Positions 40,897 through 57,091 of a stretch of DNA of 64,000 bases are shown piece by piece. Under the pieces are notes generated by a model. That model ran no database searches and was not told where the DNA came from. It was given only the letters and a program-made list of their open reading frames with translations. Position numbers and translations under genes: made by a program. How positions within the stretch are numbered: the first letter of the stretch is position 1; the number at the start of each line of letters is the position of its first letter. Source of the DNA: Gammaproteobacteria bacterium (GTDB lineage Bacteria > Pseudomonadota > Gammaproteobacteria > Eutrophobiales > Eutrophobiaceae); the NCBI GenBank assembly GCA_021773215.1, contig JAJFKM010000012.1:4922-68921 (forward strand). Direction: 5' to 3'.

Positions 40897-41985
40897 TTAA
40901 GAAGTCTTATCCTGCCCCTGCAAAGTAGGATCATCACTTTCATATGTCGGCCAGACATTGATTAAGGCCTTAACCAGAGTCGCTAATGGAATAGCAAAGA
41001 ACACACCCAGAAAACCCCATAGCCCACCAAAGACAAGAATCGCAACAATGATTGCAACCGGATGTAAATTAACGGCTTCTGAAAAAAGAATCGGTACTAG
41101 AACATTGCCATCAAGAAACTGAATAACACCATAGGAAACCATTAACCAGACAAAGTCTGCTGATAAACCCCATTGGAAGTAAGCAACAAAAGCGATCGGA
41201 AGCGTAACAACAGCAGCACCTATGTAGGGAATCAACACAGACAAACCTACTATCAACCCGAGCAGTGGCGCATAATTAAGACCAAATAAAACAAAAGTAA
41301 TATAGGAAGCACTACCAACAATAATAATCTCGTTGAATTTGCCACGCACATAATTACCTATCTGCGCATCCATCTCGATCCAGATCTCGTTTATTAGCCG
41401 CCTCTCTTTGGGTAGAAAACGACCCAGCCAATCTATGATGAGCTCCTTATCTTTTAGAAAAAAGAAGATCATCAATGGCACTAATACCAGATAGACGAGT
41501 ACCGTAATAATAGCGGGTATCGATGCGACAGAAATCGAAAGCACACTCCCTCCAAGCTCGCTAAAACCCTGACGAATCGTGATGATCAGTTGACTGACAT
41601 AATCTTCTGAGATGAACTCGGGATATTGCCCTGGTAACTGTAATAACAAAGCTTGTCCATTATTGATCATCTCCGGGACTTCCTGAAAAAACTGACTGAC
41701 TTGTTTTGATAATAGTGGCAACAACCCGAATAGAATAAACACCATGAAGGCGACAAATAAGAGATAGACCAGATTAACTGCTAAAAACCTTGAGGGTATT
41801 TTTCTTTGTAACTTGGCTACTCCGCCTTCAAGTAAATAAGCAATGACCAGCGCCGCTAGTAACGGCGCCAACATCTTACCCATTGTCAGTAAGATAACAG
41901 CACTAAGAACCAACAAGACGACTAATAATGCCGCTTGTGGATCAGTAAAGTAGCGTCGATACCATGAATTAATAAACTCAAACAT
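40897..41985 (-). CDS. AI-2E family transporter (PerM/YdiK-like permease)
   Basis: Eight predicted TM helices. The start is chosen at MFEFINSWYRRYF; the listed ORF extends to 42060. Confidence 0.75.
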   Translation of the reverse strand: MFEFINSWYRRYFTDPQAALLVVLLVLSAVILLTMGKMLAPLLAALVIAYLLEGGVAKLQRKIPSRFLAVNLVYLLFVAFMVFILFGLLPLLSKQVSQFFQEVPEMINNGQALLLQLPGQYPEFISEDYVSQLIITIRQGFSELGGSVLSISVASIPAIITVLVYLVLVPLMIFFFLKDKELIIDWLGRFLPKERRLINEIWIEMDAQIGNYVRGKFNEIIIVGSASYITFVLFGLNYAPLLGLIVGLSVLIPYIGAAVVTLPIAFVAYFQWGLSADFVWLMVSYGVIQFLDGNVLVPILFSEAVNLHPVAIIVAILVFGGLWGFLGVFFAIPLATLVKALINVWPTYESDDPTLQGQDKTS

Positions 41986-42249
41986 GTTTTTAATATAGTT
42001 AAATGTTAAGGAAGCTATGATTAAATCATAGTTTCCTTTGGTGCAGGGATGCACCAACATTTTTCAATCAGGTATCTGATTGAAAAATGGAGAAAAACAA
42101 AAATCACATTTTTAGTTTTTCGATTCTAAATAAGTCACGGATGACTTATTCAGAACTTCCTTAAATATTTTCATCATAGCGATATCTTACCTGGACAGCG
42201 AGTTTACATAGGTACGTGTATCTAAATTACTGACAAAATTATATGGTAT

Positions 42250-42282
42250 AAAAAAAAAAGGGCGCCGGAGGGGGTGGCGCCC
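42250..42282 (-). terminator. Strong intrinsic terminator on the minus strand (7-bp GC stem GGGCGCC/GGCGCCC, 9-nt loop, then 10 U in the minus-strand transcript); no gene lies upstream of it on that strand
   Basis: The plus strand reads AAAAAAAAAAGGGCGCCGGAGGGGGTGGCGCCC. On the minus strand this is a hairpin followed by U10. Confidence 0.55.
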
Positions 42283-42514
42283 TATAAAAATACAACAAAA
42301 CTGTTGAGGAGGTTATGCAAATATAAAATTCTATATAGGTCTATAGTGCAGTTGTTGTGCCAATATTTATTTTCAATATAATTCAATGAGTTAGGATACA
42401 ATCAAAACGACTATGTTTAAGAATTGCACTGTGGTGGTTTACTTTTAGAACGCATATGGTGCAATGCAAAAAATGAAATCTATTTTATGAATCTGCTTAA
42501 TATTTAAATATCCA

Positions 42515-43567
42515 ATGGATAAATCACAATTATCAAGCCATATAAAATCGTGGGGGACCGATTTAGGCTTCCAGCAAGTTGGTATTACAACGACTGATTT
42601 GGAACAGGATGAAGCCTACCTCATGAACTGGCTGAAAGAAGGACGCCATGGTGAGATGTCGTATATGCAGCGACATGGTACGAAACGAAGTCGTCCAGAA
42701 GATCTAGTGCCGGGGACCATCAGTGTTATTTCACTGAGAATGGACTACATGCCGCCCTCGAGTAAGCACCCGGCACAGGTATTAAACAATAAGGAACTTG
42801 CTTATGTTTCCCGATATGCGATGGGACGCGATTACCATAAACTTATGCGTCAACGTATCCAGAAACTAGCCACTAAAATAGAGACACAATACGGACAGTT
42901 TGGTTATCGCTGTTTTGTCGATAGCGCTCCAATATTGGAAAAAGCATTGGCAAGAAATGCAGGACTCGGGTGGATTGGCAAGCACAGCAACCTCATTAAC
43001 CCTAAAGCAGGCTCATGGTTTTTTCTGGGGGAGATTTATACTGACTTACCACTCGAGATTGACAAACCTTTTACGGAACATCATTGCGGAAGCTGTAATG
43101 CCTGTATAGACATATGCCCGACTAAAGCTATTGTGGGTCCGATGCAAGTGGATGCCCGTCGTTGTATTTCTTATCTAACAATAGAACTACGTAGTTCTAT
43201 ACCTGAAGAATTTCGCAAGATGATTGGTAACCGTGTTTATGGCTGCGATGATTGCCAATTAATCTGTCCATGGAATAAATTTTCCAAGAACACCGAAGAA
43301 GATGATTTCCGTGTGCGTAACGGTTTGGATCAACCGACATTAATTGAATTATTTGCCTGGACAGAGGCTGAATTTTTAAAGAATACCGAAGGTTCTGCCA
43401 TTCGGCGTATAGGTTACGAGTGTTGGTCGCGAAATATTGCTGTGGGTTTAGGTAATGCAGCTAAAACAGATGAAACATTTAATGCATTAAGAGCTCGAGA
43501 AAACGATCCTTCTGCAATGGTGCGTGAACATGTTGCGTGGGCGCTTGCTCAACATCAGAGTCACTAA
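42515..43567 (+). CDS. queG: Epoxyqueuosine reductase QueG
   Basis: Two 4Fe-4S ferredoxin motifs (CGSCNACIDICP, CDDCQLICPWN) and C-terminal HEAT-like repeats. Length 350 aa. Confidence 0.9.
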   Translation: MDKSQLSSHIKSWGTDLGFQQVGITTTDLEQDEAYLMNWLKEGRHGEMSYMQRHGTKRSRPEDLVPGTISVISLRMDYMPPSSKHPAQVLNNKELAYVSRYAMGRDYHKLMRQRIQKLATKIETQYGQFGYRCFVDSAPILEKALARNAGLGWIGKHSNLINPKAGSWFFLGEIYTDLPLEIDKPFTEHHCGSCNACIDICPTKAIVGPMQVDARRCISYLTIELRSSIPEEFRKMIGNRVYGCDDCQLICPWNKFSKNTEEDDFRVRNGLDQPTLIELFAWTEAEFLKNTEGSAIRRIGYECWSRNIAVGLGNAAKTDETFNALRARENDPSAMVREHVAWALAQHQSH

Positions 43568-57014: not shown

Positions 57015-57091
57015 TGGCTGGGGTACGAGGACTCGAACCTCGGAATGCATGGATCAAAACCATGTGCCTTAACCAACTTGGCCATACCCCA
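57015..57091 (-). tRNA. tRNA-Gln (anticodon UUG), CCA encoded
   Basis: The reverse complement TGGGGTATGGCCAAGTTGGTTAAGGCACATGGTTTTGATCCATGCATTCCGAGGTTCGAGTCCTCGTACCCCAGCCA folds as a cloverleaf (acceptor TGGGGTA/TACCCCA, anticodon stem CATGG/CCATG with loop TTTTGAT, T-stem CGAGG/CCTCG). It is highly similar to E. coli tRNA-Gln and sits in the conserved ispE-tRNA-Gln-prs location. Confidence 0.9.

Follow-up and report, generated by a model that had tools for sequence, protein, structure and literature searches.

Among the small regulatory RNAs (sRNAs) under nitrogen control, NrsZ of Pseudomonas depends on NtrC and RpoN, and NfiS and GlnZ are other nitrogen-controlled members. NrsZ is longer than the RNA described here, contains repeated modules and is processed, while GlnZ is derived from a 3' UTR. 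The Qrr RNAs of Vibrio, which depend on sigma-54, LuxO and Hfq and are about 100 nt long, are encoded by stand-alone intergenic genes that combine a -24/-12 promoter and a Rho-independent terminator with an enhancer further upstream, to which an activator of the NtrC family binds (PMC10162802; in part general knowledge). Sigma-54 promoters with an upstream enhancer also drive GlmY/GlmZ (with GlrR) and CrcZ/CrcY (with CbrB), and glmY and glmZ carry IHF sites in addition (PMC4987338; in part general knowledge). GlmY/GlmZ and CrcZ/CrcY act partly by protein sequestration. NcS25 of Burkholderia was considered as a further sigma-54 parallel and set aside, as its paper reports no upstream sigma-54 motif. 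Alphaproteobacterial NfeR1/alpha-r14, and MmgR/alpha-r8 as well, exert their effect by way of anti-Shine-Dalgarno motifs; in NfeR1 these motifs, CCUCCUCCC, are ultraconserved and unpaired, and the RNA has been linked to nitrogen and NtrBC signalling (PMC10746234). NfeR1 has three hairpins, each with CCUCCUCCC, and is transcribed from a sigma-70 promoter with activation by LsrB and repression by NtrC.

The locus analyzed here lies in a 64-kb stretch of gammaproteobacterial DNA (the window), in the spacer that separates minus-strand perM, which encodes an AI-2E-family transporter, from plus-strand queG (42515-43567), both genes being confirmed by Pfam. The best explanation for positions 42250-42463 of the minus strand is a self-contained sRNA gene whose product, about 85 nt long, would act in trans, and we regard this reading as probable. 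With Qrr it shares the stand-alone intergenic setting, the -24/-12 promoter, the upstream enhancer and the terminator; however, the Qrr family (RF00378) does not match the RNA even at E values up to 10, the LuxO site TTGCA-W3-TGCAA is absent, and the predicted gene is single-copy, carries an anti-Shine-Dalgarno seed instead of the Qrr seed and belongs to a different lineage. The layout also resembles that of the GlmY/GlmZ and CrcZ/CrcY genes, including an IHF-like site at 42381..42393, but neither the GlrR site TGTC-N10-GACA nor a CbrB site is present, and these RNAs have no Rfam match here. The likeness to NrsZ, NfiS and GlnZ consists of predicted sigma-54 and NtrC control, read from binding-site sequences alone, by which nitrogen status would be passed on to post-transcriptional control; none of the three is homologous to the RNA by Rfam scans. 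Like NfeR1, the RNA carries anti-Shine-Dalgarno motifs, here CCUCCUC and CCCCCUCC, but these are placed in a single-stranded segment and in the C-rich loop of one hairpin, the alpha-r14 model (RF02344) scores 17.2 bits against a gathering threshold of 58.8, and NfeR1 comes from a different class of bacteria. By analogy, the NfeR1 RNA of rhizobia is the closest mechanistic counterpart of the predicted RNA, and Qrr, NrsZ and GlmY/Z are the closest transcriptional ones, none of them homologous. The features of the locus are as follows.

42447..42463, minus strand: putative enhancer dyad 1, TGCACCATATGCGTTCT, 10/14 to the NtrC consensus, centered at about -119
42425..42441, minus strand: putative enhancer dyad 2, TAAACCACCACAGTGCA, 10/14 to the NtrC consensus, centered at about -97
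42381..42393, plus strand: IHF-like site ATTCAATGAGTTA, 8/9 to the IHF core WATCAANNNNTTR, centered at about -50
42347..42362, minus strand: predicted sigma-54 promoter TGGCAC-AACAA-CTGCA (-24 GG, -12 GC), from motif match and conservation
42252..42336, minus strand: predicted sRNA of about 85 nt, its 3' end within the U tract and its 5' end inferred
42306..42312, minus strand: CCUCCUC, candidate anti-Shine-Dalgarno-like seed, unpaired in the MFE and centroid folds
42293..42306, minus strand: small hairpin CAACA-GUUU-UGUUG, from fold and alignment, weakly supported
42283..42292, minus strand: U/A-rich single strand UAUUUUUAUA, directly 5' of the terminator
42250..42282, minus strand: intrinsic terminator, stem GGGCGCC/GGCGCCC (42282-42276, 42266-42260) and U10 tail (42259-42250)
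42275-42267, minus strand: terminator loop of 9 nt, ACCCCCUCC
42171..42202, minus strand: perM promoter-like block CTCGCTG...AAGATATCGCTATGATGA, conserved lineage-wide

The hairpin at 42250-42282 had been picked out in a sequence-only reading as a minus-strand terminator with a GGGCGCC stem, a 9-nt loop and a U10 tail, and the sequence matches this description exactly. On the plus strand, A10 (42250-42259) is followed by GGGCGCC (42260-42266), GGAGGGGGT (42267-42275) and GGCGCCC (42276-42282), so that the stem is a perfect 7-bp helix made entirely of G/C pairs. The contrast with AT-rich surroundings noted in the same reading is evident in the base composition, with 91% G+C in the hairpin and 72.4% A+T in the spacer (42283-42514). 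Both strands of the 64-kb window were searched with custom criteria, namely a perfectly paired stem of 6 bp or more containing 5 or more G/C, a loop of 3-10 nt and, directly after it, a run of 7 or more T. This hairpin was the sole match, and 200 block shuffles yielded none. The built-in terminator scan had overlooked the hairpin because it limits loops to 3-8 nt and the loop here has 9. The terminator was present in both the MFE and the centroid folds, with a z score of -3.3.

Related loci were collected by a QueG protein search of genome contigs, which returned uncultured gammaproteobacterial MAGs with QueG proteins 77-95% identical. The divergent perM-queG arrangement was retained in L001-L018 and L020. 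The orthologous sequences fall into clade A, which includes the window, and clade B (L011, L012, L014, L016, L017, and L141). A metagenome scan with the promoter-plus-terminator pattern gave 64 matches, among which were twelve further true copies of marine and coastal origin (TARA, North Sea, Delaware coast, sediments). Roughly 40 of all 64 were false positives, consisting of the 3' end of a human-gut gene together with its terminator. These contigs (within L081-L143) hold a near-identical 95-nt stretch in which the gene end ...AAGCTGAACAACAAGTGA is followed by the terminator GGGCGCCCGCGGGCGCCC, a chance match to the pattern that is unrelated to the sRNA. A covariance model trained on 13 sequences of clade A scored 109 bits on the window, where it detected no second copy, and 95 other loci were likewise free of paralogues; weak matches of the model upstream of queG in Methylococcaceae loci (L058, L065, and L066) were traced to an unrelated terminator.

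The module, which extends from the dyads to the terminator (about 215 bp), is carried by about 20 distinct related genomes or contigs. Each copy adjoins perM and/or queG and lies between them wherever the contig has both; the gene thus occurs as a single copy at a syntenic position and is not dispersed. This bears directly on the reading of the hairpin as a dispersed REP- or MITE-type element or a functionless relic terminator. Nothing beyond the G+C contrast of the hairpin with its surroundings speaks for such an origin; against it, a search of the window tolerating 3 mismatches recovers the hairpin sequence only once, each related locus has one copy in fixed synteny and orientation, and the hairpin shows purifying selection and comes with a matched promoter. 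A dispersed REP copy had been named at the outset as the case that would undo the proposal, and with a single copy per locus in the same synteny throughout, we consider a REP element or relic extremely improbable.

Conservation of the block in related genomes, which the sequence-only reading had put forward as a check, was found in the form of the module at about 20 loci, with a 3' part conserved far above neutral queG sites. The 3' 60 nt of the RNA are 89-100% identical to the window in clade A relatives, except in L006 (79%), while the four-fold sites of queG in the same genomes are 36-67% identical to the window. By this comparison, the 3' part of the predicted RNA is under purifying selection. 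The terminator stem and the U tract that follows it (7-10 T) are retained in all orthologues. In the minus-strand alignment of the spacer the terminator is invariant, loop included, with the loop ACCCCCUCC and a U8-10 tail in clade A; the loop is mostly C-rich in clade B, where L017 has GCAA instead. One terminator pair shows a compensatory change from C-G to U-A in L011, L012, L016, and L017. U·G and G·U pairs are found in the L007 terminator and at several stem positions of both clades. Read from the opposite strand they would become A·C mismatches, and together with the compensatory change they assign the RNA to the minus strand.

The module is present or absent as a unit. It is missing as a whole in L009, L010, L013, L015, and L018, where the perM-queG spacers measure about 100-215 nt, and a rough NJ tree of QueG and PerM suggests at least two independent losses. 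The existence of several related species without it indicates that the module is dispensable.

The sequence-only reading had looked to 42380-42480 for a minus-strand -35/-10 pair. What lies there instead is the IHF-like site together with the putative enhancer dyads, and the predicted promoter is a sigma-54 -24/-12 element at 42347-42362. Sigma-54 promoters follow the -24/-12 consensus TGGCACnnTTnTTGC (PMC8743547), and we required GG at -24, GC at -12 and exact spacing (TGGCAC-N5-TTGCW). All of these are found at 42362-42347, with C instead of T at the -14 position. The promoter sequence, TGGCACAACAACTGCA, is the single match in 64 kb, where 0.08 would be expected. TTGGCA(C/T)-N5-CTGC sits 65 nt 5' of the terminator stem, and across 15 genomes both elements, TTGGCA and CTGC, stay unchanged and exactly spaced, whereas the 5 nt between them vary. 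Such invariance of GG and GC at fixed spacing, with variable bases in between, is what a functional sigma-54 promoter would be expected to show. A scan for sigma-70 promoters gave fewer matches than in shuffles; the lone minus-strand match, at 42536-42507 inside queG, was dropped as a promoter as it is not conserved in clade B. On the evidence of these motifs, the promoter of the RNA is of the sigma-54 rather than the sigma-70 type. Counting 12 nt (±2 nt) from the -12 C (42348) to +1 puts the predicted 5' end near 42336; applied to about 20 distinct orthologous loci, the same promoter-to-terminator measure yields RNAs of 78-88 nt. The proposal that a short minus-strand transcript arises within the spacer of about 230 bp and ends at the hairpin is thus supported by comparative evidence, namely the promoter, the predicted length and the selection on the RNA.

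Two putative enhancer dyads lie upstream of the promoter, 21-22 bp apart. Compared with the NtrC consensus TGCACCAnnnTGGTGCA (PMC8743547, PMC4987338), the pair is strong in its outer half-sites (TGCACCA and AGTGCA) and weak in its inner ones, and the left half of dyad 1, TGCACCA, is a perfect NtrC half-site. None of 5000 shuffles of the region contained two such dyads, and 51 of 5000 contained one. At least one dyad (at least 9/14) was found in 13 of 14 orthologues and both were found in 9, at fixed positions; in clade B the dyads are clean GCAC-N7-GTGC palindromes. The IHF-like site falls between dyads and promoter and is read on the strand opposite to the latter. At least 8/9 matches recur at this position in 13 of 15 orthologues, with 9/9 in L017, and the conserved columns of the site are the specified positions of the consensus. 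A sigma-54 promoter would be expected to have an enhancer about 80-150 bp upstream, in many cases with an IHF site in between; sites resembling both were found here, and both are positionally conserved. The predicted order of enhancer, IHF site and -24/-12 element is the usual one for sigma-54 promoters that depend on an activator. There is no consensus site for GlrR, LuxO, NifA, NorR, or CbrB, and among the window ORFs scanned against Pfam none encodes an enhancer-binding protein. That the activator is NtrC itself is a tentative assignment, to which we give slightly less than an even chance.

In clade A, the window included, the MFE and centroid folds of the predicted RNA concur. Its 5' part is variable and A/U-rich in this clade. 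The candidate seed CCUCCUC is retained in 11 of 13 clade A sequences, being replaced by CCUCAUC in L005 and by UCUCCCU in L006. ACCUCCU is identical to the 3' tail of 16S rRNA. In the clade A alignment, changes in the small CAACA/UGUUG hairpin are one-sided, with no compensatory pairs. Immediately 5' of the terminator, the minus-strand spacer alignment contains the invariant block CCTCCTCAAC.GTTTTGTTGTATTTTTA, and UGUUGUAUUUUU within the U/A-rich stretch is invariant in clade A. From its sequence, we infer that the stretch UAUUUUUAUA and the poly-U tail form an Hfq-type 3' module. The sequence features of an Hfq-dependent sRNA are thereby present (UAUUUUUAUA, terminator, U10, and unpaired CCUCCUC), and the terminator loop motif CCCCCUCC adds a second C/U-rich motif. 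The 5' end of the clade B RNAs is a 7-bp stem-loop with CCUC in the loop, whose pairs change one-sidedly and stay paired via G·U; it is followed by single-stranded CCUCUGCUCC and then the terminator. The candidate seed is CCUCCUCAAC in clade A and CCUCGAC/CCUCUGCUCC in clade B. The seed region aligns poorly between the clades, and CCUC alone is common to both. The theme that unites the two clades, as judged from the predicted RNAs, is that of C/U-rich anti-Shine-Dalgarno-like motifs ahead of an Hfq-type 3' end.

The window itself offers no target for these motifs. Among the window mRNAs, no GAGGAGG or GGAGGGGG was found at a ribosome-binding site, all occurrences being inside or antisense to coding regions; neither perM nor queG carries a seed-matching G-rich site at its ribosome-binding site, and an RNAduplex target search within the window was uninformative. 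Whether the predicted RNA acts by anti-Shine-Dalgarno pairing is, in our estimate, an evenly balanced question. The lack of a detectable target in the window, together with the two conserved C/U-rich motifs, would also fit a protein-binding or decoy RNA that titrates an RNA-binding protein or the ribosome. Gammaproteobacterial sponge RNAs of the CsrB/RsmZ type use GGA motifs. At this locus, however, the GGA motifs lie on the opposite, untranscribed strand, the RNA is short and has two motifs only, and its Hfq-type 3' end is typical of pairing sRNAs; a decoy is thus unlikely.

A coding function was likewise considered. The sequence-only reading had stated that no minus-strand ORF lies between the terminator and queG. 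Taken mechanically, this does not hold, as a 39-aa ORF with a TTG start exists (42401..42282), but the ORF is not conserved. That ORF and a 12-codon ORF inside the predicted RNA are what could be cited for a small-protein gene or a dual-function RNA. In close relatives, 1-nt indels shift and break the frame of these ORFs, and L003 and L004 have no stop codon at the end of the 39-aa ORF; moreover, there is no Shine-Dalgarno sequence, and the RNA itself bears the anti-Shine-Dalgarno motif. The chance that the locus encodes a small protein or a dual-function RNA is accordingly minimal.

A search against Rfam 15, by a gathering-threshold scan of the window and a permissive scan of 41900-42600, gave no match to the RNA. 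The permissive scan returned chance-level scores only (RprA, 23.9 bits versus 70; ar14, 17.2 bits versus 58.8). The only gathering-level match in the window was a tRNA on the minus strand at 57018-57091 (63 bits), which with its UUG anticodon is probably tRNA-Gln.

The position of the unit upstream of perM on the same strand raises the question of whether it belongs to perM. The perM start is at 41982 and is conserved in all relatives (MFEFINSWY...); the mechanical perM ORF (40897-42060, minus strand) starts at 42060, and its 26 extra codons were rejected as spurious, since relatives start at 41982. The promoter-like block at 42171..42202, which has a good -10 (TATGAT) and no recognizable -35, lies 3' of the terminator and is kept in all relatives, including those without the module; in the module-less L009, L010, L013, and L015 it is found about 30-40 nt before the perM ATG. 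The block probably comprises the perM promoter and a site for a regulator, and, on the sequence comparison, it bounds the predicted sRNA unit and is outside the sRNA itself.

In the window, a segment of about 155-170 nt (41985-42150) that is absent from every relative separates this block from the perM ATG. It contains four consecutive hairpins, e.g., TTTTTCAATCAGGTATCTGATTGAAAAA and TTGGTGCAGGGATGCACCAA, has no repeat elsewhere in the window, and may be a small MITE-like insertion in the perM 5' UTR. One of its hairpins (42038-42057, plus strand; TTGGTGCAGGGATGCACCAA then CATTTTTCAA) is terminator-like and points at queG; a match of this hairpin to Bacteroidetes FopS in Rfam (25 bits versus 56) was taken as chance.

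If the sigma-54 promoter were to drive perM, the hairpin could be a regulated attenuator in a long 5' leader. The shared strand and order would allow this, as would the read-through that any terminator may permit. However, the conserved promoter-like block with its TATGAT-type -10 lies 3' of the terminator and persists in species without the module, the stem and its U8-10 tail are strong and invariant, and no Rfam cis-regulatory family matches. In addition, the 54 nt 5' of the terminator stem contain only 5 G, which makes a competing antiterminator structure impossible. We therefore consider a perM leader or attenuator improbable, somewhat more so than a decoy.

On the other side, a distance of 51 nt separates the dyads from the queG ATG. 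An activator bound there could therefore influence the queG promoter, and the module might have a role in cis as an insulator, by transcriptional interference or as an antisense to a long queG 5' UTR. The spacer of about 100-215 nt in module-less species leaves little room for a long queG 5' UTR, and a role of this kind leaves the strong conservation of the 3' 60 nt of the RNA, loop included, unexplained. A cis role at queG is for these reasons very improbable. Collectively, these comparisons favor an independently transcribed sigma-54-dependent sRNA gene, which we hold to be likely on the evidence of the conserved motifs.

In the mode of action that we propose as the most likely for this sRNA gene, sigma-54 RNA polymerase would bind the -24/-12 element at 42362-42347 and remain closed until remodelled by an enhancer-binding ATPase. 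The activator, which would be of the NtrC type in that the dyads most resemble NtrC sites, would occupy the two dyads at about -97 and -119 and be delivered to the polymerase by an IHF-induced bend at about -50. Transcription would begin near 42336 and end at the strong, unconditional terminator (42282-42250). The resulting RNA would offer single-stranded CCUCCUC and the C-rich loop CCCCCUCC, with the U-rich stretch and poly-U serving as an Hfq-type 3' end. It would then most likely pair with G-rich Shine-Dalgarno regions of mRNAs encoded elsewhere and, whenever the activator is on, keep these mRNAs from being translated; with NtrC in that role, the condition would be nitrogen limitation. Transcription, the exact 5' end, the activator, Hfq dependence, targets and the direction of regulation are all predictions from the nucleotide sequence.

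The metagenome scan also returned two unrelated contigs, by the promoter-plus-terminator pattern only, that have the same layout: L094 (7196-7320, plus strand), which carries CACUCCUCCUUUC, and L121 (1069-954, minus strand), which carries a CCCCCCUC hairpin loop and CUCUCUCCCUC. Both have sub-threshold Rfam matches to mmgR (RF00519, 22 bits). They may represent analogous sigma-54-driven anti-Shine-Dalgarno sRNAs in other bacteria. It is conceivable, although rather doubtful, that a wider class of such RNAs exists in environmental Proteobacteria, in which short sRNAs driven by sigma-54 and an enhancer would carry C/U-rich motifs mimicking the 16S anti-Shine-Dalgarno sequence and would damp translation initiation on mRNAs that depend strongly on their Shine-Dalgarno sequence, under an NtrC-type nutrient-stress activator, as an independent gammaproteobacterial counterpart of NfeR1/MmgR.

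The predicted RNA is a new family of an established kind, a sigma-54- and enhancer-dependent trans-acting sRNA that is absent from Rfam. Sigma-54-dependent sRNAs and anti-Shine-Dalgarno sRNAs are both already established, and these concepts are unchanged by the present locus. It comes from uncultured coastal and pelagic gammaproteobacteria, a lineage at family level for which there are neither genetics nor annotated sRNAs, and adds to it a conserved, well-delimited candidate regulatory RNA gene, whose promoter architecture predicts when the RNA would be made and whose anti-Shine-Dalgarno seeds predict how it may act.
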